A stretch of 64,000 nucleotides of DNA from an uncultured Verrucomicrobiae bacterium. GTDB taxonomy: Bacteria > Verrucomicrobiota > Verrucomicrobiia > Chthoniobacterales > UBA10450. The notes under the pieces are model-generated. The model was not told the origin of the DNA. It saw only the letters and a program-made list of their open reading frames with translations, and searched no databases. Every line of letters starts with the position of its first letter. Position 1 is the first letter of the stretch. Shown here piece after piece: positions 4,678-22,070 of the stretch. The DNA lies in contig CAVYZI010000006.1 of assembly GCA_963772915.1 (NCBI GenBank), positions 370,283 to 434,282 on the forward strand. Direction: 5' to 3'. Position numbers and translations under genes: made by a program.

Positions 4678-4693
4678 TCAAACGAACGTTTGA
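4678..4693. promoter_or_regulatory. Candidate TetR operator palindrome TCAAACG-AA-CGTTTGA.
   Basis: It has perfect 7-bp inverted arms and lies 18-33 nt upstream of the tetR ATG at 4711. Confidence 0.45.
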
Positions 4694-4710
4694 CTAATTT
4701 TGCAGCTGTC

Positions 4711-5349
4711 ATGGCGGAACAAATGCATGCCACCAAAGTCGCGATCCTGAACGCGACCGAGCGTCTCGTCGCCGCGCACGGTTTTGGCGCGACCTCCTTG
4801 CGCGCCATCACCGCCGCCGCCGGAGTCAACCTCGCCGCGGTCAATTATCACTTTGCGACCAAGGACGCCCTCATCCTCGCGATGTTGAACCGGCGCATGA
4901 AGCCGCTCAACGAAGCGCGCCTTGCCCTCCTTGATCGCTTCGAAGCGGAAGCCGGCGACGCTCCCGTCTCGGTCGAGAAGATTCTGGAAGCGCTCTTTCG
5001 CCCCGTCTTGGAGCTGATCGCCCGGCCCTCAAAAGGCGGCCGCAGCTTCCTCCGCCTCATCGCCCTCTGCCTGGCCGAGCCGGGGGCCTACCTCAAGCCG
5101 CTCGTGCAAAAGGAATTCGCGGAGAAAAATCGCCGCTTTTACCGCGCCCTGCGGCGCAGCCTGCCGGAGCTCTCCGAGGTCGAGGCGCATTGGCGCCTCC
5201 ATTTCGCGCACGGCGCTTTCTTCCATGCCGTCGCGCATTCCCAAGTGCTCGAGTTTTCCTCGGGCGGCCGTTGTCGCCTGACCAACGTCGGTGCCGTCCT
5301 CGACCGCGTCATCACTTTCTGTGCGGCCGGCCTCCGCAGCCGCGCGTAA
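4711..5349 (+). CDS. TetR/AcrR family transcriptional regulator.
   Basis: The N-terminal HTH reads ILNATERLVAAHGFGATSLRAITAAAGVNLAAVNYHFATKDAL. The gene lies directly upstream of the efflux genes. Confidence 0.85.
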   Translation: MAEQMHATKVAILNATERLVAAHGFGATSLRAITAAAGVNLAAVNYHFATKDALILAMLNRRMKPLNEARLALLDRFEAEAGDAPVSVEKILEALFRPVLELIARPSKGGRSFLRLIALCLAEPGAYLKPLVQKEFAEKNRRFYRALRRSLPELSEVEAHWRLHFAHGAFFHAVAHSQVLEFSSGGRCRLTNVGAVLDRVITFCAAGLRSRA

Positions 5350-5363
5350 CGAATCTAAAGAAT

Positions 5364-6640
5364 ATGCCTGCACTCGAAGAAGAACCCGTTCGAAACAAGA
5401 CGTCGCGTCCCGCCAAAGCGGACGTCCTGGTCGATCCCGGTGAACATCCGATCGAAGAAAAGAAGACGCCGTTTTTTCGTCGTCGCCGGTTGGTGATTGG
5501 CGTGGCCATCGTGCTCATTCTCGCGGTCGCTTACGTCGCGACCCTTTTCTTCCACAACCTGACCCACGAGAGCACCGACGACGCTTTCATCGACGCCCAC
5601 ATCATGAGCATCGCACCCAAGATCGCCGGCAAAATCTCGGCCGTGAAGGTGAGGAACAACGAGTTCGTGAAGAAGGGCCAGGTCCTGCTCGAGATCGATC
5701 CGCGTGACGTCGAAGCGATGGTCGCGCAGAAGCGCGCCGCGCTCGAAGTGGCGCAGGCGCATCTCGAGAACGCGAAGATGTCGGCGGAACAGGCCAAGGC
5801 GCACGTCCAGACGTTGCTTGCCGTCTACGCCTCGGCGCAGGCCGAGCACAGCGGCGGCGGCTGCGGATGCCGCAGAAGGTGCAGGGCGACCTCGCGCGGA
5901 ACAAGGATCTGATCGCGAGCGGCGCGATTTCGAAGCAGGATTTCCAACATTCGCAGAGCGACACCGCTTCTTCCGAGGCGACCTTCGAGTCGAAGAAGAA
6001 GCAGCTCGCAGGCGGCGGCAGCATATGCCGAGGAGGGGAAAAAGCAGGCCGGCTCAGCGCAGGCGCAGGTCAGCGCCGCGCAGGCGGAGGTGGCCGAAGC
6101 GCAGGCGGAATTGCAGTCAGGCGGAGCTGCAGAAATCGTACACCACGATCACCGCGCCGGAAGCCGGCCGGGTGACGAACAAATCGATCGAGCCGGGCGA
6201 TTACGTGCAGATCGGCCAGCCGCTTTTCGCGATCGTGCCGCGCAACGTTTGGGTGACGGCGAACTTCAAGGAAACGCAGCTCACCCACATGCGTCCGGGT
6301 CAGCCGGCGGAGGTTGATGTCGACGCCTACCCTGCGCGCTCTTTGCGTGGTCACGTCGACAGCATTCAAGCGGGCAGCGGGGCGCGATTCAGTCTGCTCC
6401 CGCCGGAAAACGCGACCGGTAATTTCGTCAAGGTCGTGCAGCGCGTCCCAGTGAAGATTGTGCTCGATGAACAACCGAACGTGCGGGAAGTCCTCGGTCC
6501 CGGCATGTCGGCCGTGCCGGACGTGAAAGTGACAGGCAGTTTCGGACCCGCGGTCGACGGTCACGATCGTCGCCCTGCTCGCCATCCTGCTCGTGGCCGG
6601 CGCGACCATTTGGTGGCTGGGTAAAATCAAGACTCGTTAG
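5364..6640 (+). pseudogene. emrA: HlyD/EmrA-type efflux periplasmic adaptor subunit, with about 4 frame breaks.
   Basis: The pieces in order are FIDAHIMSIAPKIAGKISAVKVRNNEFVKKGQVLLEIDPRD (frame of 5190), KVQGDLARNKDLIASGAISKQDF (5867 frame), an AQAQVSAAQAEVAEAQAELQ coiled coil (6090 frame), and TTITAPEAGRVTNKSIEPGDYVQIGQPLFAIVP...LPPENATGNFVKVVQRVPVKI (5704 frame). The last segment ends at TAG 6638-6640. Confidence 0.8.
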
Positions 6641-6648
6641 GCAGGATC

Positions 6649-8230
6649 GTGGCTGGCTCGGATTCGCCTAACGCCGCGCCTGAATGGCGGCCAAGTTACA
6701 ACCCGTGGCTGATCGCGGCCGCGGTCATGCTCGCGACTTTCATGGAAGTGCTCGACACTTCGGTCGCGAACGTCTCTCTCCCGCACATTGCCGGGAATCT
6801 CTCTGCGACGACGGATGAAGCGACCTGGGTCCTGACCAGTTACCTGGTCGCCAACGCCATTATTCTTCCGGCGACCAACTGGCTCGGAAATCTGTTTGGC
6901 CGAAAACGCTTCCTCGTTTCCTGCATCGTCCTCTTCACTCTCGCTTCCGCCCTTTGCGGCGCAGCGGGCAGCCTTGGTTTTCTCGTCGTCGCGCGCGTCC
7001 TGCAGGGCGCGGCCGGCGGCGCGCTCCAGCCGATTTCGCAGGCGGTTTTGCTCGAGAGTTTTCCGCCCAAGAAACGCGGCTCGGCCATGGCCGTCTTTGC
7101 CATGGGCGTGGTCGTGGCACCGATCCTCGGGCCAACCTTAGGCGGCTGGATCACCGACAACTACAGTTGGCGCTGGGTCTTTTACATCAATCTCCCGATC
7201 GGTCTCCTCGCCGGCCTGATGGCGAACGCCGTCATCGAGGACCCGCCCTATTTGAAACGGGTGAGCGCAGCCAACATCGACTACCTCGGATTCGGCTTCC
7301 TCGCCCTTTGGCTCGCGACTCTGCAGTTCGTGCTCGATAAGGGGCAGGAGCTGGACTGGTTCGGCTCGCACACGATCGCGTGGTGCGTCACGATCTCGGT
7401 GACGGCCTTTCTCGCCTTCGTCGTGAGGGAACTGACCGCCAGCCGGCCGCTGGTCGATCTGCGTGTCCTGAAAAACCGCAATCTCGCGGTCGGCTGCGCC
7501 CTCGTCGCAATCCTCGGCGCGCTCCTGTATGGGACGATTGCGGTCCTCCCGCTCTTCATGCAAAACCTGCTCCGTTACACCGCGCTCGATGCCGGTCTGG
7601 CCTTGAGCCCGCGTGGGGTGGGCGCGTTTTTTGCCACGATTGTGGTCGGCCGGCTGGTCGGGAAAATCAGCAACCGCATTCTGATTACGATCGGCTTTCT
7701 CGGACTCGCCTATTCCTCGTTCCTCTTCGGGAACATCAACCTCAGCATCGGGATGGTCAGCATCGTCTGGCCGACGATCCTGAGCGGCATCTCGATCAGT
7801 TTCATCTTCGTCCCGCTCGCCACCTCCGCCATGGGCACTCTCAAGCAGGATCAGATCGGCAACGCCAGCGGGCTTTTTAATCTCATGCGCAACCTCGGCG
7901 GGAGCATCGGGATCGCCGGCCTGACGACTCTTGTGGCCCGCGGCGCGCAATCGAACCAGGCCGCGTTCGTTAGCCATTTCTCGCCATACAGTCCGGTCTA
8001 CCAGCAGAAGCTCGCCGCCATCCAGCACGGTCTCGCAGATGCATGAAGGCGCCTGGCGCGCGGCGCAGCAGGCGCCGCAGGTGCTCTATCGGATTCTTGG
8101 TCAGCAGTCGTTGCTCGTGACCTACGCGCACAACTTCCGGCTCTTCGGCATCCTCTGTCTGGTCACGACGCCGCTCGTTTTCTTCTTCAAGAAAGTGCGG
8201 AAAGGGAAGGCGCCGGCCGGCGTGCATTAG
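6649..8230 (+). CDS. emrB: DHA2-family MFS efflux permease, EmrB/QacA type, with one frame break near 8040.
   Basis: The sequence LDTSVANVSLPHIAGNL...RVLQGAAGGALQP and a multi-TM profile match this family. The C-terminal 60 aa (QSLLVTYAHNFRLFGILCLVTTPLVFFFKK) continue in the frame of ORF 7931..8230. Confidence 0.85.
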
Positions 8231-8257
8231 CGATCGGGCGCGCTTCTGCGCGTCGAT

Positions 8258-8285
8258 GGAGATGCGGAAGCATGTCCCTCCAGGA
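8258..8285. repeat. Partial, inverted copy of the GTCCCTCCGGAGGGAC-type double-hairpin repeat (family A).
   Basis: GGAGATGCGGAAGCATGTCCCTCCAGG matches the reverse complement of the second half of the copy at 56859-56909. Confidence 0.6.
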
Positions 8286-8288
8286 TCG

Positions 8289-8765
8289 TTAGGCGATTTC
8301 CGCCAGGGCCGCGGCGACGGCCGCCGGCAACTGCCGTGGGCCACCGCCACCGAGCTGGGCGTCGACCGTTTCCAGGCGGCGGATCAGATCGAGCACATCG
8401 CGCCGCGCCATCGGTCCGCCGGCCGCGGCACAAAAATGGGTCCGGCAACCGAAGGGCCGGTCCGGGTAGATCAGGCAATTGCCGGAAGCGTGATCGAGGA
8501 GGGGACAGGCGCCGCCAACGTCGTTAGGCAACTTCTTCCGTCCGGTCGCCCGCAAGGCTCGGGCCGCGAGGAGCGCTTCGCCTTTCGTCAGGTAGGGCGT
8601 CAGGCCGGTGAGCTTGAACTGACAGCACTCGGTCCGCCGCACGCATTGGCGCTCGATCGGCCGTTGCGCAAGCTCGGCGTAAACGCGCCGCACCTCTTCG
8701 ATTGCGGAATGGGAAGAGTCGGTGGCGGAAAACGGTCGGCGCTTCATCGGCCAGGAAGGTGACAC
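8289..8765 (-). CDS. YkgJ-family cysteine-cluster (CxxCxxCC) protein.
   Basis: The cysteine pattern CVRRTECCQFKL...GGACPLLDHASGNCLIYPDRPFGCRTHFC matches this family. Confidence 0.75.
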   Translation of the reverse strand: MSPSWPMKRRPFSATDSSHSAIEEVRRVYAELAQRPIERQCVRRTECCQFKLTGLTPYLTKGEALLAARALRATGRKKLPNDVGGACPLLDHASGNCLIYPDRPFGCRTHFCAAAGGPMARRDVLDLIRRLETVDAQLGGGGPRQLPAAVAAALAEIA

Positions 8766-8809
8766 AAAATTCTTGACGCCGCTCTACAGCCCGAATAAAA
8801 ACGCGCTCG

Positions 8810-9729
8810 ATGAACAATAAATGTTCCCCTTGGGGATCCCTCGTGGGCTGTGCTTTGCTCGCCGCCCTTTCCTTCACCGTCACCACCGCCCGTGCCGCGA
8901 CCGCCTGTGTCTGGCGCGTGACCAACGCTCCGGCGCCCTTCTATCTCGTCGGGACCATTCACGCACTCAGCGGGAAGGATTATCCGCTGCCCAAAGCCTA
9001 CGACCAGGCCCTGCACGATTCGCAGCAGTTTTTCTTTGAGATCGATCCGGACCGGCGGAGCGGGGATAAATTTTCGAAGCTGTTCGCCGCCGCCGCCGCC
9101 TACCCAAAAGGGGACGATATTCGTCATCATATTCATCCTCAGACTTGGAATTTCCTTGCGAAGAGATTCCGGGCATCCAACCTCCTCGGCAATGGCTGGT
9201 GGTTTGGTGAGCAATATATCCCGGGTCTGCAAAATATCCGGGCCTGGGCGATCGCGTATTACCTCTGGGGTATTAACGGCTACACCGATATCTTCGGGTA
9301 AGTATGGCGTCGATTACCACATCTCTTGGGAGGCGCAGCGAAAGCACGAGGCCTGTGGCGCCTTGGAAACCAGCGAGCAACATGTCGACGTCCTCGCGGG
9401 GCATGGCCGACATCGACGCCGAGCTGGTCCTGCTCGATGCGCTCGTCCGCGGCGATAAGCGCAAAGACGATTTCAACGCCATGCGCGCCGGCTGGAAACA
9501 TGGCGATCTCGGGCCGATGCTGGCGGACGAGACTCGCCAGCGCAAACTCAATCCGGGCGCGGAAATGCGCCTGCTGGACTATCGCAATCTGCGTTGGATC
9601 CCGAAAATCGAAGCTCTGATCAAAAGCGGAATTCCAACCTCGATTGTCGTCGGCACTGGACACTTCTGCGGGACGAACAGCGTCATCGAGCTCCTGCAGA
9701 AAAAGGGTTACAAGATCGAGCAACTCTAG
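8810..9729 (+). pseudogene. TraB/GumN family protein, with 2 frame breaks near 9290 and 9390.
   Basis: The N-terminal part reads CVWRVTNAPAPFYLVGTIHALSGKDYPLP. The middle GVDYHISWEAQRKH is in the 9036 frame. The C-terminal IPTSIVVGTGHFCGTNSVIELLQKKGYKIEQL is in the 9304 frame. Confidence 0.7.
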
Positions 9730-9897
9730 TCGCGTTCGTCGCTCGCGAAGCCGAGCCGGGAGACGGCCGCTGAGATCTTCTCAGGGTGAATTCTGAACGT
9801 TGAACTGCGGTTCGGCGTCTCAGAGGGGGAACTTTGCCTGCAGCGGGTGGCATTTGCCATTCCGGCGCGCCGCACCTATTGCAGAACCTCATTGCTT

Positions 9898-11990
9898 ATG
9901 ATCAAAACCGCTCTTTGCACCACGCTCAGCCTGCTCTGCGCCGCCTCGCTGCGCGCCCAATCCGAGCCGGCTCAATCGCCCGCTGCCGCCGCAGAGGGAC
10001 AGTCGGCGTCCGAGAAAAATCCGCCGCCGCTCGACCCCAAAAACATGGACACGTCGGTCAAGCCCGGGGACGACTTTTACCGCTACGCCAACGGCAATTG
10101 GATCAAGAACAATCCCGTCCCGCCCGAGTATTCGCGCTGGGGCAGTTTCAACGAGCTGATCGAGAAAAATAACGACGCGCTCCACCAGATCGCGGAGAAA
10201 GCCGCCAAAATCGAGAAGGGCGCCGAGCCCGCGGTGCAAAAGGTGGGCGACTTCTACGCCAGCGGGATGAACGAGGAGGCGATCGACGAGGCGAAAATCC
10301 AGCCCTTGCAGGACGAGCTGAAGCAGATCGACGCGATGAAAGATCGCGACTGACCTGACGAAGGAAATCGGCCATCTCCACAGCATGGGTGTGAGAGCGT
10401 TTTTCGGTTTCACTTCCGGCCAGGATGACAAGAACAGCACGATGGTGATCGCGCAGGCTTTCCAGGGCGGGCTTGGGTTGCCCGATCGCGATTACTACAC
10501 GAAGCAGGACGACGCTTCGAAAAAGCTGCGGAAGCAATACGTCGATCACGTGACGAAGATGTTCACGTCTGCTGGGCGATTCTCCCGAGGATGCGGCGAA
10601 AAACGCCAAGACCGTGATGGAGGTGGAGACCTCGCTGGCCAAGCCGGCCCGCACCCGCGTCGAGCTGCGCGATCCGCAGAAGAATTACAACAAGATGTCG
10701 GTCGCCGACCTGAAGAAGCTGATGCCCGATTTCAAGTGGGACGATTATTTCCAGCAGCTCAACCTTGCGGCCCCGGGCGCGATCAACGTCGGCCAGCCCG
10801 ACTTTTTCAAAGCTGCCGACCAGGTCTTCAAGAACCGTCTCGCTCGACGACTGGAAGACTTATCTGCGCTGGCACCTCGTGCACGGCGCGGCGCCGATGC
10901 TTTCGAAGGATTTCGTCGACGAGAATTTCGCCTTCTATCGGCAAGACCCTGACCGGCGCCGAGAAAATCAAGCCGCGCTGGAAACGCGTCGTCACCACGA
11001 TCGACGACGAGATCGGCGAAGCGCTCGGCAAACTCTATGTCGCCGATTATTTCCCGCCCGAAGCCAAGAAGCGCGCCCTCGAGATGGTGCAACAACCTCA
11101 AGGAAGCGCTCGCCGACCGGATCAAGTCGAACGATTGGATGGATGAGCCGACGAAGCAGGCGGCGCTGAAAAAACTCGCCGCTTTCACGGTCAAGATCGG
11201 TTACCCCGACAAGTGGCGCGATTACTCCACCCTCAAGATCGATCGCGGGCCCTACGTCTCGAACGTCATGCGGAGCGACGAATTCGAAGTCGCGCGCGAG
11301 CTGAAGAAGATCGGCAAACCGGTCGATCGCAGCGAGTGGGGAATGAGCTCCGCCGACCGTCAACGCCTACTACAACCCGAACATGAACGAGATTGTTTTC
11401 CCGGCCGGCATTTTGCAGCCGCCTTTCTTTAATCCCAACGCCGACGATGCGGTGAACTACGGCGGCATGGGCGCGGTCATCGGCCACGAGATGACGCATG
11501 GCTTCGACGATCAGGGCCGGCAATACGACGCCCAGGGCAACCTGCGCGACTGGTGGACGCCGGCTTCCGCCGAAAGCCTTCAGCGAACGCGCCAAGGCCG
11601 TCGTCGACCAATACTCGGCCTACGAGCCGCTCCCCGGTCTGCACATCAACGGTAAGCTCACCCAGGGCGAAAACATCGCCGACATCGGCGGCCTCAAGAT
11701 CGCCTATGCCGCTTTCAAAAAAGCGCAGGCCGCGCATCACGACGACCCGAACAAGAAGATCGACGGCTTTACTCCCGATCAGCGGTTCTTCCTCGCCTGG
11801 GCGCAAATCTGGCGGGCCAATCAGCGCGATCAGGAGACCGAAGCTGCGTCTCAACACCGATCCGCATTCGCCGGGCCGTTTCCGCACCATCGGCCCCGTC
11901 TCCAACATGCCGGAATTCCAAAAAGCCTTCGACCTGCCCGACAACAGCCCGATGGTCCGTCCCGCAAAGGAACGCGCCAACATCTGGTAG
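9898..11990 (+). pseudogene. M13 family metallopeptidase, PepO/neprilysin-like, with 8 frame changes.
   Basis: The recognisable segments are [86 protein letters not shown], the zinc motif [29 protein letters not shown] and the C-terminal PAKERANIW. They are spread across ORFs 9847, 10385, 10614, 10765, 11037, 11383, 11498 and 11553. Confidence 0.85.
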
Positions 11991-12049
11991 GGGCGGCCGG
12001 GCCGCCTCCGGTTATTGGTTAATGGTGTAGAGGCGGCCGTGTCGGCCGC
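11987..12049. repeat. Two tandem REP-like units, each a GTAG followed by a hairpin.
   Basis: The units are GTAGGGGCGGCCGGGCCGCC (11987-) and TGTAGAGGCGGCCGTGTCGGCCGC (12026-12049). The TAG of the first GTAG is the M13 stop codon. Confidence 0.75.
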
Positions 12050-12065
12050 TCCCCCCACTCCGGAT

Positions 12066-12494
12066 TTATCCGCTAACCGCCGCGGCAGGGGCGATCCCAA
12101 ACATCTCCTTCACCGAACCGCGTATCAGCACGATCAACGTGAACACGCCGAGGATGACACCAAACGGAACGAACAAGCATTCCACGCACGCCATCACGAA
12201 CGAAAACCAATAACGGCGACGGCGCGCGATGCAGCGACCCGAGATCACGACGCAGATCGAAAAGGCGATCCCGAGTGAGAAAAGAACGAGGCCAATCACG
12301 ATAAAGATCCAGGCGAAGATCTCGGGAGGCGGGCCACCCTTCTGGTGAGGATCGGGTGGCGCATGCAGGATGAACCACCCCATGGCCGTGTAAAACAGCG
12401 GAAGAAACGAAAACAGCACCGCCAATCCCCCGACGACGTAGTGAAAAATTGCCAGCAACCGGAGGTGTTCTTCGTCCTGGGTTGAGATTGCCAT
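12066..12494 (-). CDS. Hypothetical integral membrane protein with about 4 TM segments.
   Basis: The 142-aa ORF is intact and contains hydrophobic helices: LAIFHYVVGGLAVLFSFLPLFY, IFAWIFIVIGLVLFSLGIAF and VPFGVILGVFTLIVLI. Confidence 0.6.
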   Translation of the reverse strand: MAISTQDEEHLRLLAIFHYVVGGLAVLFSFLPLFYTAMGWFILHAPPDPHQKGGPPPEIFAWIFIVIGLVLFSLGIAFSICVVISGRCIARRRRYWFSFVMACVECLFVPFGVILGVFTLIVLIRGSVKEMFGIAPAAAVSG

Positions 12495-12512
12495 CTGTAA
12501 TCCGAAGGTTGT

Positions 12513-12536
12513 GCGGCCGACGCGGCCGCCTCTACA
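12513..12536. repeat. REP-like unit, an inverted copy of 12026-12049.
   Basis: The reverse complement of GCGGCCGACGCGGCCGCCTCTACA is TGTAGAGGCGGCCGCGTCGGCCGC. This matches 12026-12049 at 23 of 24 positions. Confidence 0.8.
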
Positions 12537-13355
12537 TCATTTCACCACCGTCACTACAAACGCCTGGATCTTCCCGCTGATGTGCCCCTTCCCGAAGCGC
12601 TCCGCCAGCGCTTTGGTCGCGACCACCGTCGCGTCGCTCAGCAACGAGGCATCGCGCTCCTCGATCTCGCTCCGCAGCGGCGTGCCCTGGCAATAGGCCA
12701 TCGCGGCCACGCGCGGTGACCGCGCCTCGCTCCGCGCCGCCACCGTTTCGATCGCGGGCTTGGCGGTGAAGCCGCCCGCCGCCAGGTCGCGCTCCATCGT
12801 CGCGGGATCGTGATATCCGTGCGGCACGCGCGCATGGAAACGCGGCGGATCATCCGGGAAAAGCGACTCGAGCGATTTCGTCACGACATCAGGGAATTCA
12901 TTGGCCTCGATCCGGTCCCAGGTATTGAAAATGAAGACTCCGCCGGGGCGCAAGACCCGGCGCACTTCGGCAAATGCCTTCGCCTTGTCGGGGAAAAACA
13001 TCACCCCGAATCCGCAGACCGCGGCATCGAACGACTCGTCAGGGAAGGGGAGCTTCATCACATCCGCCTGCCGCCATTCCACTGAGCGCGAAGTGCCGAT
13101 CGACCGTGCCTGTTCCAGCATCCCTTCATTCAGATCGGTCGCGATGATGGAGACGCTCTCCGGCAAAGTGGAAGCGAGCGCCCGGGTCACGACCCCGGTG
13201 CCGGCCGCGATCTCGAGCACGTTCGAGGGCGATCGCGCCGCGACTCGCCCGGCCATTTCCGCCGCGTAGGGCTGAAAGACGAGCGGCACGAGGTAGGTCT
13301 CGTAAAGCTTCGGAACCGAACCGGTGAAGACGATATCGCTCTCAGGATTACTCAT
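12537..13355 (-). CDS. Class I SAM-dependent methyltransferase.
   Basis: Motif I is VLEIAAGTGVVTRAL. The DLNEGMLE, FDAAVCGFGVMFF and LRPGGVFIF motifs are also present. Confidence 0.85.
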   Translation of the reverse strand: MSNPESDIVFTGSVPKLYETYLVPLVFQPYAAEMAGRVAARSPSNVLEIAAGTGVVTRALASTLPESVSIIATDLNEGMLEQARSIGTSRSVEWRQADVMKLPFPDESFDAAVCGFGVMFFPDKAKAFAEVRRVLRPGGVFIFNTWDRIEANEFPDVVTKSLESLFPDDPPRFHARVPHGYHDPATMERDLAAGGFTAKPAIETVAARSEARSPRVAAMAYCQGTPLRSEIEERDASLLSDATVVATKALAERFGKGHISGKIQAFVVTVVK

Positions 13356-13419
13356 GGTTTGCTTGCTTCCGTCCGTGATCGAATCAGAACACGAAAAATG
13401 GCGCGAGCAAAATTCCCGT

Positions 13420-13445
13420 TGGAGGGACGTGCGCCGTCACGTCCG
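13420..13445. repeat. GGAGGGACGTG-CGCCGT-CACGTCC hairpin repeat, copy 1.
   Basis: The 26 nt are identical to 16306-16331. A related copy lies at 20665-20705. Confidence 0.85.
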
Positions 13446-13448
13446 TGT

Positions 13449-13871
13449 CTCTCGCTCGATTCGCACAAGGAGTGGATCAAGGACATCAACGAAACGCAGT
13501 CCTGCACGATGAACTTCCCGATCATCGCGGATCCGGACCGGAAAGTGGCGCTGGCTTACGACATGATCCATCCCAACGCGGACGACCAGGCCACGGTCCG
13601 TTCCGTCTTCATCATCGGGCCGGACAAGAAGGTGAAGCTCACCATCACCTATCCGGCCAGCACCGGTCGCAATTTCCTCGAGATCCTGCGCGTCATCGAC
13701 TCGCTCCAGCTCACCGCCAAACACAAGGTGGCGACCCCGGCCGACTGGAAACAAGGCGAGGATTGCATCGTGGTGCCGGCCGTCTCCGATGAGGACGCGG
13801 CCGAAATGTTCCCGAAAGGCGTGCGAAGGATAAAGCCCTACCTCCGCTACACCCCTCAACCAAACCTCTGA
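13449..13871 (+). pseudogene. 1-Cys peroxiredoxin (Prx6-like), 5'-truncated fragment lacking the catalytic Cys region.
   Basis: The sequence LSLDSHKEWIKDINETQ...NFPIIADPDRKVALAYDMIHP...VRSVFIIGPDKKVKLTITYPASTGRNF.EILRVIDSLQL matches residues from about 65 onward of Prx6-type enzymes. There is no PVCTTE region upstream. Homology starts within about 5 nt of the repeat at 13420-13445. Confidence 0.75.
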
Positions 13872-13981
13872 GCGGAAGGCATCGCAGGGAACGACCGGTT
13901 TTCCGCCAGACAGCGGTCCGCCCGGCCCAGTGGGCGGGCCGGGCGTCGCGATGAAATCGCTTCGAGCCGCGAGAAAGCGCG

Positions 13982-14584
13982 CTATCTCGCTTTCACTCGC
14001 GCCGTCGCGGTCCCGCCAAGATTGCTCGTGACCGTGATCATCTGAGGGTTGGCGATGTTTTTGAATTTCCCCCGATAATTACCGCCTCCCTGGTTCATCA
14101 GCATGCCGATGAGCGTGCCGTCGCTGCTCTTCGTGACGGTCAAGACCGCGGTATCATTGCTGTCGGTCGCCTGCACCGTGAGTTGCATGCGCGAGGTAGC
14201 GTAACGGGCGCGCGTGATCTGCACCGTGTCGATGGCTTCGGTCACGGTGACCGTTCCGATCATCCCGCAACAGGCACCGTGCGGTGAGCAGTAGTAGTTG
14301 AAGGTGCCCGCGGTCGTGAAGGTGAAGCTGAAGGTGAAACCAAGATTCTGCACTCCGGAATCCCACATCCCATCAGGATTGCCCGGCGTGCCGGAGGTGG
14401 TGCTGTGGCCATTGGCCGCCCAGACCCATTCGACCGTGTCGCCGACGTGGATATCGACATTCTGCGGGGTGAATTTGAGGCCGCCCGCGCCTACCTGCAC
14501 CTGGAAGGTGGTGGCCCGCGCACCGGCGACCGAGATGAGGGCGACGCAGCAGAATACGAATGTGAATTTGAGATAATGTTTCAT
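13982..14584 (-). CDS. Secreted cupredoxin (plastocyanin/azurin-like type-1 copper) domain protein.
   Basis: There is a signal peptide, MKHYLKFTFVFCCVALISVAGA. The copper-ligand pattern is VEWVWAANGHS...YYCSPHGACCGMIGTVTV (H...C.PH....GM). Confidence 0.75.
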   Translation of the reverse strand: MKHYLKFTFVFCCVALISVAGARATTFQVQVGAGGLKFTPQNVDIHVGDTVEWVWAANGHSTTSGTPGNPDGMWDSGVQNLGFTFSFTFTTAGTFNYYCSPHGACCGMIGTVTVTEAIDTVQITRARYATSRMQLTVQATDSNDTAVLTVTKSSDGTLIGMLMNQGGGNYRGKFKNIANPQMITVTSNLGGTATARVKAR

Positions 14585-14885
14585 GTTTTCCTCCATTTCA
14601 TCGATCATGACGAGCTGGCTTCCGGTTGCGAAGCTCTTTTTCGTAACAATCCGGTTACATTCCAATTCCGCGTATCGCACGAGATGTCGGGGCTCCGCGT
14701 TTGAAGGGGAGACTTTCCCCCTTCGACGATCGCTCCGGGCAGGAAAACGGCACTGCGTCGAACCCTTTTGAGTCGGCCTTCCGAGACTGCTCGCCATTTG
14801 ACGGCGGACTCAACCTCGGCGAGTGCTCGCCGCGACCGGGCCGATCATGGCTCGCAAGCCGCGCGATCATTTCGGCCTAACTATC

Positions 14886-15200
14886 ATGAGCACGTCGGAG
14901 ATTTTGCTGACCGCCATGGCGGTCATCTACACCGTGCCCTACCTCGTCTGGCGGGTCGGCCGCACGGAATACTACGCGCCGTTGGTCGTCGTGCAGATCG
15001 TCGGTGGCATTCTGCTCGGGCCCGGCGTGCTGGGCGCGGCCTTTCCCGAGTATTACCATTTCGTCTTCAATCCACAGGTCATTGGGCAGCTGAACGGCGT
15101 CGCGCAGTGGGCGGTCATGCTCTTCGTCTGGGTGGCGGGAATCGAGCTGGACTTTGGCCAAGCCTGGCGCCACCGGCGCGAGACGGCGGTGACCGCAATG
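14886..15200 (+). pseudogene. Cation:proton antiporter (Kef/CPA2-like), N-terminal fragment only.
   Basis: The sequence MSTSEILLTAMAVIYTVPYLVWRVGRTEYYAPLVVVQIVGGILLGPGVLG...WAVMLFVWVAGIELDF resembles the first about 100 aa of such an antiporter. Homology stops there, and the ORF runs on into unrelated sequence. Confidence 0.6.
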
Positions 15201-15204
15201 GGGC

Positions 15205-15735
15205 GTAGGCCCCGGCCAAAAAGTCGGCGTGATCGGCCTCGGCGGACTTGGCCACATGGCGCCAAGTTCGCGCGTGCCTTCGGCGCCGAAGTTACGCTCT
15301 TTACCACCTCACCAGGGAAGACAGCCGACGCGATGCGCTTGGGCGCGCACGAGGTCGTGATCTCGAACGACAAAGAAGCGATGGAGAAACGGGCGAAGCA
15401 TTTCGATTTCCTCATCGATACCGTTTCCGCGTCGCACGATCTCAACGCCTGCCTCGCGCTCCTGAAACGCGACGGCGCCCTCGTGCTGGTCGGTATTCCG
15501 GCGGACGCGATATCGGTAGACGCCTTCCATTTAATCGCCCCCCCGCAGGCAACTGGCCGGCTCGCTCATCGGCGGGATCGCCGAGACCCAGGAGATGCTC
15601 GATTTCTGCGCCGAGCGAGACATTGCCTGCGACATCGAGCTCATCGCGATCGACCAGATCAACCAGGCCTACGAGCGCATGCTGCAGCGCGACGTGAAAT
15701 ATCGTTTCGTGATCGACATGGCGTCGCTGCGATAG
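15205..15735 (+). pseudogene. Zinc-type NAD(P)-dependent alcohol dehydrogenase, C-terminal half, with 2 frame breaks.
   Basis: The sequence reads GQKVGVIGLGGLGHMA / KFARAFGAEVTLFTTSPGKTADAMRLGAHEVVISNDKEAM...LVLVGIP / [59 protein letters not shown]. The catalytic N-terminal domain is absent. Confidence 0.7.
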
Positions 15736-15746
15736 CAAGCCATGTT

Positions 15747-16286
15747 ATGTCACTCGAATCCGACGAGCCGGAAGCGAAAAAAATGAATTGGGACGCGATC
15801 GATGCGATTTCGCAATTTGTCAGTTCAATCGCCGTCGTCCTCTCGGTGCTTTATCTGGCCAAGGAAGTGCACCGCAGCACGCGCGTGGCCAAGGTGGCCG
15901 CCCAGGACGCCGCCGCCTCCGCGGTCCGTGAGGTGACCAACACCTTCATGGAAAATGCGGACATGTCCCGCATCTGGGGAATCGGGCTGGAGGATCTCAA
16001 AACATTATCGCGCGAAGATCAGGCGCGATTCTTCCACGCCGCTCATCAGTTCCTCAAGGCGCTCGAGACGATTCACTTTCACCAGGTGAATGGGTTGATG
16101 GATCAACAACTCTGGCACGGCTGGCAGGAACTGCTGCGCCATTACATCTCCGCGCCCGGCATCGCCCGCTATTGGGAGATCCGGAGCCAGCTTTTCTCAG
16201 CCCGCTTCCGCGAATTCGTCAACCAACTCGAGCCCGCCGGCGACCGCCGCACCGTCGGCACCCTGCTAGGTCAGGAAGAATTGTAG
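15747..16286 (+). CDS. Hypothetical protein (179 aa).
   Basis: This is the open-frame tail of ORF 14823..16286, starting at ATG 15747 (MSLESDEPEAKKMNWDAIDAISQFVSSIAVVLSVLYLAKE...). I recognise no family. Confidence 0.5.
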   Translation: MSLESDEPEAKKMNWDAIDAISQFVSSIAVVLSVLYLAKEVHRSTRVAKVAAQDAAASAVREVTNTFMENADMSRIWGIGLEDLKTLSREDQARFFHAAHQFLKALETIHFHQVNGLMDQQLWHGWQELLRHYISAPGIARYWEIRSQLFSARFREFVNQLEPAGDRRTVGTLLGQEEL

Positions 16287-16331
16287 GGCGGGCGCTCCGC
16301 CTGCCTGGAGGGACGTGCGCCGTCACGTCCG
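16283..16331. repeat. REP-like GTAG hairpin followed by GGAGGGACGTGCGCCGTCACGTCC, copy 2.
   Basis: TTGTAGGGCGGGCGCTCCGCCTGCC is followed by TGGAGGGACGTGCGCCGTCACGTCCG, which is identical to 13420-13445. Confidence 0.85.
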
Positions 16332-16336
16332 AGTTT

Positions 16337-16708
16337 CTAAACCGGCGAAGCCCCCGACATTCGTCCACGAGCCGACAAATCGCGACCAACCGCCGGCACC
16401 AACCCGCCGACCTGCCCCAGACCGAAGGGAGGCATATTGTGATAGATGTTCTCGGACGAGCCGGCCTTAACCAGATACGTCTCGTGCCAAATGCCGACGT
16501 CGCCGCTGTCGCCGACCGCGCGACTGAAGGCCTGCCAGGCCGGCAAATGTTCGCGCTCCCTGCTCGAAGCGTAGCTGGTCAGGCGCTCAAACGAGCGCCA
16601 GGACTGCACCGAAACGATGGTGCGCTCCAACCAGAAACGGCCGCCGGGGAAGCCCAACTCCGGGTGCGTTGCCAGTTCGGGGATCATCCTCCCCATGGCG
16701 CGTGCCAC
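16337..16708 (-). CDS. DUF4188-like (monooxygenase-family) protein. The N-terminus is uncertain or possibly truncated.
   Basis: The sequence WLPVARAMGRMIPELATHPELGFPGGRFWLERTIVSVQSWRSFERL...HLPAWQAF resembles DUF4188. The frame stays open upstream of the first ATG (..NRLHRRPLKIHQ) with no obvious start codon. Confidence 0.5.
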   Translation of the reverse strand: MARAMGRMIPELATHPELGFPGGRFWLERTIVSVQSWRSFERLTSYASSREREHLPAWQAFSRAVGDSGDVGIWHETYLVKAGSSENIYHNMPPFGLGQVGGLVPAVGRDLSARGRMSGASPV

Positions 16709-17138
16709 CGGCAGCCACTGATGGATCTTGAGCGGGCGTCGGTGCAGGCGATTCGACCTGCTCGCGTTAGAAGTGTTCGAAATTTGTCAGTTGCGAAATC
16801 GTCTTCGTCTTCGTTCTTCGAAAGACGTGGAAAGACGAGGACGAGGACGGGGAGGAATCACCCAAATTGACAATCGGCGAACACTACCTGCTCGCGTAGA
16901 AAGAGCCCTTTTTTGCTTGTCTTTGTCCGTTGCGCTCGACAAAAATTCGCTCATGAACCGATGTTCCCCGTCCGATTTCCCCGGGACGCCCGGGAACCGG
17001 GCGATGCAGCCAACCGCTGGCCGCTCCGATGCCTCCCTTTACTTTATGAAAACACGCCCATTGCAAGCCACGCTCGCTATCGCCAGCGGTGGCTGAGCTC
17101 CGTCTCGTTAGACCTAACCGCATCACCGTCAGCGAACG

Positions 17139-17477
17139 ATGAAAAGTCTCACGATTGCCATTGCCGTCTTGAGTGCCACACTGGCGTCGTGCGTCACTCC
17201 GGAGCCAAAAGCAACACATTCGAGCGCCCAGCTTCTCAACGCCCCCCGTCCGCGCTATCCGGACGCGGCAAAGCCGCACCTTTACGGTGGTGCCGGGATT
17301 TTCCTGCTACATTTCCGGCCAGATGGAACGGTTTCGGCCGTAACGGTCGAAAGGTCCACTGGCCAAAAGGTGCTCGACGAAGCGGCGGTTTATACATTCT
17401 CTCAGTGGCGTTGTCGACCAGGCGCGTATACGGTGGTCAGGATTCCGATGTCTTTCTCCACGCGCGGAGCACATTAG
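17139..17477 (+). CDS. Lipoprotein with a TonB C-terminal-like domain.
   Basis: The lipobox is LSATLASC. The sequence PRPRYPDAAKPHLYGGAGIFLLHFRPDGTVSAVTVERSTGQKVLDEAAVYTFSQWR matches the TonB_C fold signature. Confidence 0.65.
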   Translation: MKSLTIAIAVLSATLASCVTPEPKATHSSAQLLNAPRPRYPDAAKPHLYGGAGIFLLHFRPDGTVSAVTVERSTGQKVLDEAAVYTFSQWRCRPGAYTVVRIPMSFSTRGAH

Positions 17478-17513
17478 TTACCACATGAGGAGTCTAAGGC
17501 CTAGGCTCAACTT

Positions 17514-17840
17514 TGTAGTGCAACATTTGCTAGGTCTGAAGGAAGCATTGATTGGGTGTTTTGTAGCCATGTCTTTTTCGCGGTCGGTTATTAAGCTGCT
17601 CTGCGATTAGGTCGCATTCGCTTTGCGTGACTCGAGCCATCGTTTGACCTTTGGGAAGATACTGCCGGATGAGCCCGTTGGTGTTCTCATTGGTCCCGCG
17701 CTCCCAGCTGTGATGCGGGGTCGCGAAGTGGAACTTGACCGGGTTGACCGCTTCCACCTGGCCATACCAGTGGAACTCGGTCCCATTGTCCGCCGTAGTG
17801 CTCGCAGCCCATTTCGTCGACCCGTCCCGACGCGCTCACG
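17514..17840 (-). pseudogene. IS30 family transposase remnant: the C-terminal about 100 aa plus a terminal inverted repeat.
   Basis: The protein fragment reads DNGTEFHWYGQVEAVNPVKFHFATPHHSWERGTNENTNGLIRQYLPKG...RPRKRHGYKTPNQCF, with a stop codon upstream and no N-terminal domain. The outer end, TGTAGTGCAACATTTGC at 17514, resembles the IS30 terminal repeat TGTAG.... Confidence 0.8.
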
Positions 17841-18009
17841 TTGTGGGAAGCGCATCTCTCCTACTGGGGCGATTGCACTACGTTCTTGCTGCCGCTGGCG
17901 GCTATGGGCTGGTGCGCTCGGTGGTTTGTTTAACAGGGCGGTGCGGGGATCGTGCTTTTCCTGATCGCGCTGTTATTGTAGAACTCTGGTTACGGGGTGA
18001 GTTCGGGAG

Positions 18010-18654
18010 ATGCGCAAGAAACCCAGGTTCTACAGGCAAAGATCTGCATTGCTGATCGCAATTTCAGTCGGGCTGCGCTCTTTCCTTGCGGCCGGGATGG
18101 CCCTCTTCCTGGGCTCGACGGTGTGGGCCGAGGAGGAAGTGGCAACGCCCGCGCCCTATGCCCCCTGCGCCTTCCTTATCGGCGAATGGAACGTCGGCCC
18201 GATCGAGGGGAAGCCGGCGGCCGTCGCGCATTTCCGCTGGGGTCCGGGCAAGACCTGTATCTGGTACTCGGGGGCGCTGCTCGTAAAGGGCAGTGAGCAA
18301 CCCTCATGGGAGGGCCTGTTGGTTTGGAACGGGGTCCATAAAAACCTCGATTTTCTTCTCGTCCTCGACCCGACTCCCGGCCACCTGGTTCAGGAGCAGG
18401 GGACAATGCACCTCGAGCCTGATGGCACCGTGGTCCGAGAGATCACAGCCTTTTACTCCGAAGGCAACCCAGCGCCGCCAAACTGGGACCAGCCTGCGGG
18501 CGTCGAAGGAGCAACCGGGCAATTTCGGCAGACCTTCAAACCGGACGGTCCGGATCGCATCCGCACCGCCGTGATGAGGAAGGCCAGGAACCGCTGGGTC
18601 CCGAATTTCCCGGGGAGCGATCATCTGTTGATGACGAGGCAAGCGACGAAGTGA
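18010..18654 (+). CDS. Hypothetical secreted or membrane-anchored protein.
   Basis: The 214-aa ORF is intact and has an N-terminal hydrophobic segment, LLIAISVGLRSFLAAGMALFLGSTVWA. Confidence 0.5.
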   Translation: MRKKPRFYRQRSALLIAISVGLRSFLAAGMALFLGSTVWAEEEVATPAPYAPCAFLIGEWNVGPIEGKPAAVAHFRWGPGKTCIWYSGALLVKGSEQPSWEGLLVWNGVHKNLDFLLVLDPTPGHLVQEQGTMHLEPDGTVVREITAFYSEGNPAPPNWDQPAGVEGATGQFRQTFKPDGPDRIRTAVMRKARNRWVPNFPGSDHLLMTRQATK

Positions 18655-18753
18655 CGGGCTTGGAAGAGGATCCCCGGTTGTGGCTAGCCTCACGGCTTTG
18701 CCGTCTATCCCGCGGCAATTCGTCTTGTTATCGTTAGGCGCGGAAGACCGGTT

Positions 18754-19359
18754 GTGAAATCTGGACAAATCGTGCTTTTGAGCACACTCGCCGCGTGCGC
18801 CTACGGTGTCGTTCACGACCAGATTACGGTGCGGCTTTGCCTCGAGTATTTCACGGTGGCGCATCCGCCTCTGTTCCATACGACCTCGCCGACTCTCCTC
18901 GCACTCTGCTGGGGGGTGGCGGCCACCGCAGGGATCGGCGCTGCATTGGGTGTCGTCCTGGCTCTCGTTTCACAGTCGGGCGGTGCAGTTCCGTATTCGG
19001 TCTCCCGGGTCGGGCGATCGATTCTCGTCCTCCTCGCAATCATGGGCGCATCGGCCATCACTGCCGGTGTCATCGGTTACCAGCTCTCGCGCCGAGGACT
19101 CATCTCGCTGCCGGCTCGTTTGGCAGAGGCAATTCCGGTACAGCGGCATGATCGCTTCATGGCCGTCTGGTTCGCTCACGGGGCGAGTTACGTGGTTGGT
19201 TTGGCCGGCGGAGCGCTCGTCTGTTTCTGGATCTGGCAGGCCCGTGGCAAACCTTCCGTGATCTCGTTCTTCCCGCAGACGCGCGCCGGAGCCATCCGCG
19301 CGGGCGTTATTGGTGTGGTCGTTGTCTATATCGTGTGGGTTCGATTTCGTGCTGCTTGA
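18754..19359 (+). CDS. Hypothetical integral membrane protein.
   Basis: The 201-aa ORF is intact and contains several hydrophobic helices. Confidence 0.5.
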   Translation: MKSGQIVLLSTLAACAYGVVHDQITVRLCLEYFTVAHPPLFHTTSPTLLALCWGVAATAGIGAALGVVLALVSQSGGAVPYSVSRVGRSILVLLAIMGASAITAGVIGYQLSRRGLISLPARLAEAIPVQRHDRFMAVWFAHGASYVVGLAGGALVCFWIWQARGKPSVISFFPQTRAGAIRAGVIGVVVVYIVWVRFRAA

Positions 19360-19618
19360 TTGGCGCCTCAAGCGGGTCGCGGCTCCCACATTTCCCACAG
19401 TGCTCCGAATGAAAGAAGCGACCTTGCCAGCCGGGTTTCGGCTCGGCCGATCGGAGCGAGCTCGGATCGATAAATCCCATGCGCCATTCTTCCTGCGGCC
19501 GCAAAAATACGGCAAGTGATATTCGAACCTTGACCTTGTGATCGCCTTCCCATTGCGACTCTCCTCGCTTTGCGATCCAGCCTCTCACTTTCCGCCGCCC
19601 GCCTTGAGTCGAGGTTGA

Positions 19619-20605
19619 TCAACCGACCGGGCTAATGATATCGCCTTTGACTGGGGAGTAACCGGTCTTTGTTTCGCTATGACCGTCTTTGGTCAGGATG
19701 ACTTTTCGAAAGACGCATTTGATGCCCAGGGCCTCCTGGAAGATCGGCGAATTCTGGAGGTGATAATGCAGATGCGGTTCGGATGAATTTCCCGAATTGC
19801 CGCACCGGCCGAGAAGCTGGCCGCGTTTCACGCTTTCGCCCGCTTTCACCACGACGCTGCCGCGCTGCAGATGCGCGAGGACGGAAACCTCATGCGGTCG
19901 ATGCTGAATGACGACGCAATTGCCGACCAGACAATACGGATTCATCGAAGGCGGCGTGTTATCGCGAACGCCGTCGATCGCTTCGACCACGATCCCATCG
20001 GCCGGCGCGAGGATTTCGCGACCGAAGCAAAAATAGTCTTCATTCCCGGCGCCGTCGGCGCGATGCGTTTCGCCTTTTTCATTTACGCCGACCAGATCGA
20101 GCGCGAAACGCTGCGCCGGGACGTCGTGGTGATGGTTTAGCTCCTTTGTGTCGCCGCCCCAGAAGACCAGCCAGCGACCTTTGCAGGGCAACGATAACTC
20201 CGTCTGCTGCTTTTTCGCTTCCGGCTCCGAGGATGTCGCGCGCGGTTTGAAAAGCAGACCGGCTATCTTGCTTTCGGCGTCGAGTGCGAGCGACATGTTC
20301 AGCATTCCGCGCTCGCAGTGCGCGGGAAAAACCATCCAGTCGCCGCTGCGTTCCGGTTCACCAAGCTTCTGGATTTTTCCGAATTGTGTGGTCAATCCGG
20401 TAAAGAATTCCTTTGTCTTATCCAGGGGCAACGCCTTGCTCATCTCGCCGTTGAACAGCTTTTCGACGCCGGGATAATCTCCGGCATTGATCAGTTGGAC
20501 GAGTTGATCGGCAACTTTCGAGTAACGATCCGTCTCCGCGGCAACACTCATGTGCGCTGGATGGAGGATTGAACCCAGGAGAACAAGCGTAATTAGAGTT
20601 CGCAT
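19619..20605 (-). CDS. M23 family metallopeptidase.
   Basis: The sequence HHHDVPAQRFALDL...GNCVVIQHRPHEVSVLAHLQRGSVVVKAGESVKRGQLLGRCGNSGNSSEPHLHYHL carries the HxxxD and HxH motifs. An N-terminal signal peptide is present. Confidence 0.85.
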   Translation of the reverse strand: MRTLITLVLLGSILHPAHMSVAAETDRYSKVADQLVQLINAGDYPGVEKLFNGEMSKALPLDKTKEFFTGLTTQFGKIQKLGEPERSGDWMVFPAHCERGMLNMSLALDAESKIAGLLFKPRATSSEPEAKKQQTELSLPCKGRWLVFWGGDTKELNHHHDVPAQRFALDLVGVNEKGETHRADGAGNEDYFCFGREILAPADGIVVEAIDGVRDNTPPSMNPYCLVGNCVVIQHRPHEVSVLAHLQRGSVVVKAGESVKRGQLLGRCGNSGNSSEPHLHYHLQNSPIFQEALGIKCVFRKVILTKDGHSETKTGYSPVKGDIISPVG

Positions 20606-20664
20606 GCCGCAGTTCTACCGAATGCGGGGCGCATAAACAATGAGGGATTTTGCGCGCGAGAGTC

Positions 20665-20705
20665 GGAGGGACGTTCCGCCTGAGGCGGATCACGTCCGTG
20701 TTTCT
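20665..20705. repeat. Variant of the GGAGGGACGT...ACGTCCGTGT hairpin repeat.
   Basis: GGAGGGACGTTCCGCCTGAGGCGGATCACGTCCGTGTTTC shares both ends with 13420-13451. Confidence 0.7.
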
Positions 20706-20818
20706 TCTTCGATGACGAGGCCGTTGCTGACCGGGGTTTTGTGAAACGAAGAGCCGAAAGATTTGGCTCGCGCGCACCCGGCCAGTTGTGCATTCTGCCT
20801 GCCGCCGGAGCCTTGACC

Positions 20819-22005
20819 ATGAAACGACTGCTCTGCCTGGCAACCCTGCTTGCCATCTCCACCGGATTCGCCGCGGACTTGCCGGTTGTCTTTCCGGTGT
20901 CTCCATCGGCCGACGGCCGCTACCTTCAGGATGCAACCGGGGTTCCGTTCCCGATCCTCGGCCGGACGGCATGGTTCATCACCTCACTGAAGCGGTCAGA
21001 ATACGAGACCTTCCTCAACGATACTGCGGCCAGGGGCTATACCGCGATCGAGTTCCACGTCGTCAACCATGATTCCCGCGGCAACCACCCGCCCTTCGCC
21101 GGGAACCGGGCGCTGCCTTTTTCTGAAGAACCTGGACGGCTCCAGATACACAGGCGGCCTGAGCGGAACCGCGGACTTCACCACGCCTAACGAGGCCTAC
21201 TGGGCCTATGTCGATTCCCTTCTCGATTACGCGGAGTCGAAAGGTCTGCTCGCCTTCATCTTCCCCGCCTATGCCGGATACCTCGGCGGCAGCCAGGGCT
21301 GGATGATCGAGCTGCTGGCCAACGGCCCGGAGAAGGTGGAGACCTACGGCGCATGGATCGCCACCCGTTATGCTACGCGGAAAAACATTGTCTGGATGAT
21401 GGGCGGCGATATCGGCACCGACGATAACTCTTTCACGCCCGAGCAGACGGCGGTGGAGCGAGTGTTGCTCACCGGACTGCAAAGCGTGCCCGGCCAGCAG
21501 TCCATTTATTTCTCGGCCGAGTGGAATACCGATTCCGTCGCGACCGACCAGGTGGACTTCGGGACCGCGATGACGAATCCTAACCGCGGGCTGGCAGAAC
21601 CACCTGAACACGCTTGGCGCGCAGGACATGGCGCGGCTTAACGCCTTCATCAGATCGGTTCCGTGGCAAACGCTCGTGCCCTCCGGGCTCGGCGGCATCG
21701 GCACGATCGTGACCGACGGCGGCGGCACGACCGATTTCGATTTCATAACCGCCGCAGTAACGGCGAACGGACGATTACTCGTCGCCTACGTGCCGCCAGG
21801 CGGGCACCCGGGATCGATCAGGACCTTTACGATCGACATGAGTTTTCTTGCCGGCCCGGCACGAGCCCGTTGGTTCAATCCGGCGACGGCGCAATACAGC
21901 GTGATCGCCAAAAATCTGCCCAACGCTGGCGGGCACGTCTTCACGACCCCGGGAAACAACGGTTCGGGCTACAGCGACTGGGTCCTGGTGATCGACTCGC
22001 AGTGA
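20819..22005 (+). pseudogene. DUF4038 / GH140-like glycoside hydrolase with a C-terminal collagenase-type binding domain. There are 2 frame breaks, at T5 run 21118-21122 and near 21600.
   Basis: The signal peptide is MKRLLCLATLLAIS. Recognisable segments are GRYLQDATGVPFPILGRTAWF...GYTAIEFHV, then FTTPNEAYWAYVDSLLDYAESKGL...IVWMMGGD, then WFNPATAQYSV...GYSDWVLVI. Confidence 0.7.
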
Positions 22006-22048
22006 GGCGGCGAGAAGCGCGCCGGGCTCTCAGGTCCCAGGGCGTCTT

Positions 22049-22070
22049 GCCTAACGCCTAACGCCTAACG
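22049..22070. repeat. Three tandem overlapping copies of GCCTAACG (a 7-nt period).
   Basis: The sequence is GCCTAACGCCTAACGCCTAACG. The middle CTA (22058-22060) is the TAG stop of the minus-strand SprT-like gene. Confidence 0.95.

Follow-up and report, generated by a model that had tools for sequence, protein, structure and literature searches.

The word-free interval and its genes

A 64,000-nucleotide stretch of the genome of an uncultured Verrucomicrobiae bacterium of the order Chthoniobacterales (GCA_963772915.1; hereafter, G000) was analysed with respect to a short DNA word, GCCTAACG/CGTTAGGC, that is strongly over-represented in it (37 exact copies, versus 1.2 expected from shuffles). 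This stretch, which we call the window, corresponds to C6:370283-434282 of an assembly of 4.54 Mb in 12 contigs, with a GC content of 61% and a marker completeness of 87%. A preliminary description of the window had reported that the exact word is missing between 8529 and 18732, and had proposed that the missing word marks recently acquired or decaying DNA. The absence itself was borne out: no exact copy occurs in 8530-18731, an interval of 10,202 bp (hereafter, the tract). The features in and around the tract are given below, where congeners are genomes of the same genus and REP denotes repetitive extragenic palindromic sequences.

8522-8529, minus strand: left bounding word copy, inside the conserved CxxCxxCC-domain gene at 8289-8765 (minus strand)
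8810-9729, plus strand: TraB/PrgY/GumN-family gene (GumN below; tblastn with intact congener proteins, and Pfam PF01963 on the G003 orthologue)
9889-11990, plus strand: M13 zinc metallopeptidase gene (M13 below; tblastn), with the HExxH motif kept
12021-12541: small membrane open reading frame (ORF) of 142 amino acids (aa) at 12066-12494 (minus strand), between 29-nt inverted REP-like repeats
12537-13355, minus strand: intact S-adenosylmethionine (SAM)-dependent methyltransferase gene (Pfam; a single tblastn high-scoring pair), syntenic in five congeners
13356-22050 (8.7 kb): non-syntenic patchwork of native gene fragments, synteny with congeners resuming at about 22,050
13420-13452, plus strand: REP-like palindromic unit (family D1) at the truncation point of the peroxiredoxin gene, with a second copy at 16306-16338
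13455-13871, plus strand: 1-Cys peroxiredoxin remnant, residues 74-210 of 211, 93% identical to congeners
13982-14797, minus strand: cupredoxin (plastocyanin/azurin-like) domain protein (Pfam PF00127)
14823-16286, plus strand: chimeric ORF of 487 aa, composed of Na/H-exchanger N-terminal and ADH_zinc_N fragments (Pfam) and a 585-bp piece
16337-16783, minus strand: Monooxy_af470-like (formerly DUF4188) ORF, profile positions 11-118 of 118
17491-17809: 318-bp multicopy repeat with a weak rve_3 match (integrase core, minus strand, E=0.03)
18732-18739, minus strand: right bounding word copy

The genes that the preliminary description had listed were confirmed, namely, GumN with two frame breaks, M13 with eight, a peroxiredoxin gene without residues 1-73, a fusion of exchanger and alcohol dehydrogenase fragments, and a DUF4188-like ORF. 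Its IS30 remnant was upheld only as the weak rve_3 match on the 318-bp repeat, the insertion sequence (IS) family itself not being confirmed. No match in an Rfam scan of the whole window reached the gathering score.

Position +8 is A in 86% of the genomic copies of the 8-mer, and we therefore took the 9-mer GCCTAACGA as the unit of the word. The flanks of the copies are unique and show 3-base periodicity, which indicates a free-standing word rather than a portion of a longer repeat. The 8-mer occurs 2,595 times in G000, about equally on both strands, with similar densities in predicted coding and intergenic DNA (0.575 and 0.559 per kb, respectively), and it supplies the TAA stop codon in 130 cases. 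The word is specific to the genus: the 9-mer was found at about 1,000-4,300 copies per genome in 24/24 same-genus genomes and at only 1-19 copies, below the reversed-word control, in every other family of the order.

Only degenerate forms of the word occur in the tract, as had been stated, and they are few. One-mismatch forms of the 9-mer are present at 14875 and 17105, whereas about four are predicted by the window average; there is thus no excess of degenerate copies. Destruction of tract words by assembly insertions was also considered and rejected, with a single candidate (GCCGTAACG at 17337); the frequency of such forms in the window was estimated to be roughly that expected by chance. 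To the left of the gap, the position of the word copy at 8287 is kept in 6/6 congeners, while the bounding copy at 8522 is kept in G003 only.

The claim that the gap is unlikely by chance holds for a single pre-chosen 10.2-kb segment, for which the Poisson probability of zero words is approximately 0.003, but not on the scale of the genome. Among the approximately 2,600 intervals between words in G000, 31 are at least 10.2 kb long, and that of the tract ranks 31st in length; gaps of 10 kb or longer account for 12% of all bases. Word spacing is over-dispersed (variance/mean 1.85 in 10-kb bins), and when the same number of words was scattered uniformly, 8.3 gaps of this size were obtained genome-wide, with a maximum of 16 (300 simulations). 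Correspondingly, the share of 64-kb windows with such a gap is 32% in the real genome and 8% in Poisson simulations. A gap that looks significant within one window is therefore routine at the whole-genome count (31 such gaps, versus about eight expected by chance). With respect to composition, the tetranucleotide distance is 0.119 or higher for 20 of the 31 gaps, which are mostly low in GC, and the other 11, including the tract, are native (distance of at most 0.108), a number close to the chance expectation.

Native or acquired origin of the tract

DNA uptake sequences, such as the DUS of Neisseria and the USS (uptake signal sequence) of Pasteurellaceae, are known to be scarce in islands and prophages gained by horizontal transfer. 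By analogy, the tract might be recently acquired or long-decaying DNA in which the host word was never gained or was lost. The genome-wide part of this proposal stood. Across 10-kb bins, the number of words correlates with GC (rho 0.63), weakly with long-ORF coverage (0.22), and negatively with tetranucleotide distance (-0.16), and zero-word bins are lower in GC (mean 58.4 versus 61.1%) and more atypical (mean tetranucleotide distance 0.175). The largest gap is an accessory exopolysaccharide (EPS)/PEP-CTERM locus, a 20-kb sample of which was unmatched in 16/20 congeners; judging by their sequences, the largest gaps include large sensor kinases, an O-antigen-type cluster, and genes of the EPS/PEP-CTERM type. 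In the congener G001, the word occurs at 0.70 per kb where the DNA aligns to G000 and at 0.47 per kb elsewhere (1.5-fold, p=0.007). The word is thus depleted in accessory, low-GC DNA genome-wide, and the effect is modest, at about 1.5-fold between shared and unshared DNA. Such depletion is a prediction of an uptake- or recombination-driven word, and it supports pursuing the word rather than this particular gap.

The tract does not follow this rule. The k-mer-signature comparison that had been proposed to detect foreignness gave the opposite result, as the tetranucleotide distance of the tract (0.092) falls at the 5th percentile of 10-kb bins, among the most native, and its GC content (60.4%) is close to that of the genome (61.1%). 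Parts of the tract have counterparts in each of the 18 congeners searched, most of the matches listed having 66-91% identity. No tRNA was found in window positions 1-30000, the only mobility evidence in the tract is the weak rve_3 remnant, and its direct repeats are copies of a REP-like family that is dispersed in the genome. Accordingly, 26-nt direct repeats were rejected as island boundaries, since they are members of this family, with about 10 copies. When the tract was assessed as a genomic island by composition, by absence or non-synteny in relatives, and by mobility hallmarks, none of the three identified it as one. The tract is not acquired DNA.

Synteny separates the tract into two parts. 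Of the six same-genus genomes compared, all join window position 4629 directly to 8286, five retain the same gene order (GumN-M13-methyltransferase) through 8286-13355, and all six carry M13; the methyltransferase gene at 12537-13355 is the last gene of this genus-wide syntenic block. The congener genes are intact, with lengths of 303-310 aa for TraB/PrgY/GumN, 725-765 aa for M13, and 271-295 aa for the methyltransferase. The orthologues of all three genes are word-free in 6/6 congeners, where words occur in the spacers only (0-3 per genome). The three genes of G000 have therefore inherited their lack of the word, which does not stem from gene damage, and a recent acquisition of the block does not apply. 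The small membrane ORF is flanked by an inverted REP-like pair (12021-12049 and 12513-12541), the unit of which is present genome-wide in 14 exact and about 47 two-mismatch copies.

Beyond 13355, the order is not syntenic up to about 22,050, and the patchwork contains only two words, at 18732 and 21185. The congeners run from the methyltransferase into DNA that is located at C3:164378-169785 in G000. This DNA, which directly follows the GumN-M13-methyltransferase block in G003, G006, and G015, contains a ComEA-like HHH_3 gene (C3:168746-168913 in G000), which a rearrangement has separated from the block in G000. The REP-like family D1, which marks the truncation point of the peroxiredoxin gene, has about 10 copies with up to two mismatches genome-wide, and a further unit was found in the window at 20690-20713. 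The 5' part of the peroxiredoxin gene (residues 1-73, including the catalytic Cys) was found nowhere in the G000 assembly; the intact gene in G012 and G017 adjoins DNA located at C3:172575-174225 in G000. The pieces of the chimeric ORF map to different congener loci, where the 585-bp piece is a separate conserved gene. Several fragments of the second half match congeners with the degree of identity usual for orthologues (mostly 66-91%). The 318-bp repeat has two copies in G000 (the other at C6:90391-90708) and at least eight in G003, with an identity of 86-95% across species, above that of orthologous genes, and probably represents a terminal part of a mobile element common to the genus. The second half resembles rearrangement scars at REP-like repeats or IS elements in that synteny breaks off beside a REP-like palindrome and that one gene is truncated, one ORF is chimeric, and a remnant of a mobile element is present. 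It differs from them in that the tract yielded no intact gene for a transposase or a REP-associated tyrosine transposase (RAYT). The second half reflects either a genuine rearrangement that left a scar in native DNA or, with lower probability, a chimeric assembly. By density, only about three words are expected in 13356-18731, and their absence is weak evidence by itself; the congener homologues of the peroxiredoxin and of the 585-bp piece are also word-free.

Taken together, an acquired or long-decaying origin is quite improbable for the tract as a whole and is largely refuted for 8530-13355, where the block is syntenic and intact in congeners with equally word-free orthologues. Besides the genome-wide trend, this explanation can draw on the non-syntenic second half, with its truncated peroxiredoxin, chimeric ORF, and mobile-element remnant, and on the long-ORF coverage of the tract, which is at the 2nd percentile. 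Against it stand the native composition, the matches in every congener searched, the scarcity of mobility hallmarks, the lack of surplus degenerate copies, and the absence of relaxed selection in M13 (see below). In addition, the neighbouring emrAB block, which is absent from the congener locus, carries the word. This emrA/emrB block (window 4630-8285, 3.65 kb) is missing from the locus in 6/6 congeners and holds two exact words and four one-mismatch forms; hence, non-syntenic DNA can carry the word. The best matches of the EmrB protein were soil metagenome-assembled genomes labelled Chthoniobacterales or Verrucomicrobiae.

The preliminary description had named two findings that would speak against its proposal, namely, motif-free gaps that are common in conserved core regions and a tract that is syntenic and intact in close relatives. 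Each was found in part: the tract is syntenic and intact in congeners in its first half, and a word-free gap exists in core DNA at C3:843723-855340 (LepA, SodA, and RpsN/ribosomal protein S14, read by eye), which is syntenic in 11/12 congeners. The equivalent regions of the congeners contain 1-5 words each, at differing positions.

Frame breaks in the tract and across the assembly

Two single-base insertions, at approximately 9296 and 9395, divide GumN among three reading frames, and M13 contains eight, at 10352, 10567, 10833, 10939, 11089, 11349, 11572, and 11840. All ten are +1 and private to G000, none being present in the six congeners, and the insertions that could be placed unambiguously lie outside homopolymer runs. 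Their density in GumN and M13 is about 3 per kb, compared with 0.12 per kb genome-wide. After removal of the eight inserted columns, M13 has 681 codons and no stops. The dN/dS of the corrected gene to congeners (0.06-0.175) equals the range among the congeners themselves, the dN of the G000 branch is the lowest (three-taxon arithmetic on pairwise distances), and private replacements at otherwise invariant residues number 12 in G000 versus 9-24 in the congeners. Disabling mutations are present in the tract (in GumN/M13, the peroxiredoxin, and the chimeric ORF), but relaxed selection was not detected in M13. Eight neutral indels should have been accompanied by dozens of substitutions and a few stops, and neither was seen, which argues against evolutionary decay.

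The same signature was found across the assembly. Sampling of 19 regions of 20 kb from G001 covered 193 kb of coding DNA with 167 orthologues, 18 of which (approximately 11%) are frame-shifted in G000, with 24 shifts in total (0.12 per kb), 19 of them (79%) net +1. The frame-shifted genes include MetK, RuvB, TreS, Lnt, and a double UvrA (identified by eye). Furthermore, as judged from start coordinates modulo 3, rpoB and rpoC are each split into three frames and metK into two, at a single locus each (C7:944468-952341 for rpoB/rpoC and C4:402975-404148 for metK), with contiguous profile coordinates and every step +1. The essential genes of the assembly thus do not stay unbroken. Since a living cell cannot lose both large RNA polymerase subunits, these breaks are consensus errors, and since the same +1 signature splits these single-copy genes, the insertions in GumN and M13 are most likely also consensus errors of a long-read metagenome assembly. 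Pseudogene calls anywhere in the G000 assembly are unsafe, and frame breaks in window genes termed 'decayed' or 'pseudogenes' cannot be read as decay without a check of the rpoB/rpoC/metK type.

Indel errors in long-read-only assemblies create pseudo-pseudogenes. G000 resembles such cases in that single-base indels split conserved genes, including rpoB, rpoC, and metK, with about 11% of genes affected, and in that its marker completeness is lowered to 87% although the assembly has only 12 contigs. It differs from them in that approximately 80-100% of its errors are insertions, located outside homopolymers and strongly clustered locally.

This local clustering is an argument for the alternative that GumN and M13 are true, very recent pseudogenes produced by real insertions, the errors elsewhere being a separate matter. 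Ten breaks in 2.6 kb amount to about 26 times the genome-wide rate, as relaxed constraint on one locus would give, and the adjacent region carries a real rearrangement. We nevertheless regard this explanation as unlikely, given that there are no in-frame stops, that dN/dS and private replacements are as in intact orthologues, and that rpoB, rpoC, and metK are split with the same signature. Moreover, bacterial pseudogenes show a deletion bias, whereas all ten breaks are +1, without any deletion or larger indel.

According to the preliminary description, the gap coincides with the most decayed genes. This association did not survive the comparison: the breaks are private +1 insertions without relaxed selection, and broken genes elsewhere have a normal word density. 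Within 5 kb on either side, frame-shifted orthologues have 7.3 words and intact ones 6.9 (p=0.46), and a UvrA-like gene with five +1 shifts holds seven words. On these grounds, a shared cause of frame breaks and word loss genome-wide was rejected. The coincidence of the gap and the broken genes is without mechanistic content.

A further alternative is that approximately 9.3-22 kb of the window is poorly supported or chimeric assembly, so that the indel cluster and the patchwork are both artefacts. The assembly contains many insertion errors, the densest cluster adjoins the synteny break, the 5' part of the peroxiredoxin gene is missing from the assembly altogether, and completeness reaches only 87% in 12 contigs. 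However, the fragment junctions coincide with REP-like repeats that are present elsewhere in the genome, which fits real recombination, and each fragment is single-copy in the assembly, so that none is a duplicated mis-join of another locus. We therefore consider a chimeric origin very unlikely.

Overall, the gap is real but probably ordinary, its genes form a conserved native block and a patchwork, and the apparent decay is probably for the most part an assembly artefact. The word-free interval would then be an unremarkable fluctuation in the spacing of the genus-specific 9-mer GCCTAACGA, produced by two unrelated neighbours. The first, 8530-13355, comprises native genus-wide genes (the CxxCxxCC protein, TraB/GumN, M13, the small membrane ORF, and the SAM-dependent methyltransferase), and the second, 13356-18731, is the first 5.4 kb of the 8.7-kb patchwork, with its native fragments, REP-like repeats, and mobile-element remnant. 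The gap itself would represent a chance event in moderately word-poor native DNA, and the frame breaks, which are most likely assembly errors, have no bearing on the word.

Several observations weigh against this interpretation. Of 51 fixed 10-kb bins in which GC is native and the tetranucleotide distance does not exceed 0.105, none is word-free; native word-free DNA of 10 kb is thus uncommon. Across the six species, the orthologous coding DNA of GumN, M13, and the methyltransferase (about 23 kb) contains no word where about 12 are expected by density, and these word-free orthologues point to a real local depletion rather than pure chance. With regard to the frame breaks, the insertions in GumN and M13 are clustered about 26-fold above the genome average, and insertion-biased errors outside homopolymers are not the classic nanopore error profile. 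Finally, provided that the assembly is correct at these sites, the peroxiredoxin piece and the chimeric ORF represent genuine remnants, and part of the tract is then, loosely speaking, 'decaying DNA'.

The word as a signature of the genus

The depletion in orthologous genes would be accommodated if the word were an uptake or recombination signature of the genus and conserved word-free blocks were native genes excluded from the word-spreading process, a possibility that we regard as doubtful. Candidate causes of such blocks are recombination-cold loci or a strong protein constraint against word-encoded peptides. If native blocks were indeed excluded in this way, the spacing of the word would provide a readable map of recombination history, beyond foreignness. 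A count, in the orthologues, of peptide sites that could carry the word was tried as a control for protein sequence and rejected as circular, as the word itself creates the peptide (72% of PN[D/E] sites are word-encoded).

The genus word is similar to DUS and USS in several respects. It is short, strand-symmetric, lineage-specific, and about 30-fold over-represented, and it occurs in coding and non-coding DNA alike, being rarer in low-GC, atypical, and accessory DNA. As tested for an uptake-type word, both lineage-specific over-representation on two strands and depletion in accessory DNA were observed. Unlike the islands from which DUS and USS are depleted, the tract is native in composition, its first half is syntenic in congeners, and the orthologues there are word-free too. 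The competence-type genes of G000 comprise ComEC (frame-broken in the assembly), DprA, the ComEA-like HHH_3 protein, and secretins; such genes are permissive, not diagnostic, and are also present in non-competent control genomes. In the literature, no publication was found that connects Verrucomicrobia or Chthoniobacterales with this word or with an uptake sequence of any kind. By analogy, the word may be an uptake sequence of an uncultured Chthoniobacterales genus.

A word-poor region was also seen in G017, where 20 kb (C2:10500-30499) contain no words despite conserved genes. These genes include a peroxiredoxin, a 545-aa gene (C3:172586-174223 in G000), and a glycyl-tRNA synthetase (GlyRS)-region block that overlaps the word-free gap C3:611216-624333 of G000. 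Some word-poor regions may thus be conserved between species.

The word also shapes protein sequence. Genome-wide, 72% (526/731) of the Pro-Asn-Asp/Glu tripeptides of predicted genes are encoded by the word, and its reverse complement accounts for 22% of [SPTA]-Leu-Gly sites, via the rare TTA codon. Outside the genus, only 19 copies of the 9-mer were counted in G022, a genome from another family of the order; most of these lie in same-strand clusters (C7:94047-96651, C21:53993-55767, and C13:25-1453) with a spacing of about 400-900 bp; these clusters could be a repeat array or DNA from the word-bearing genus.

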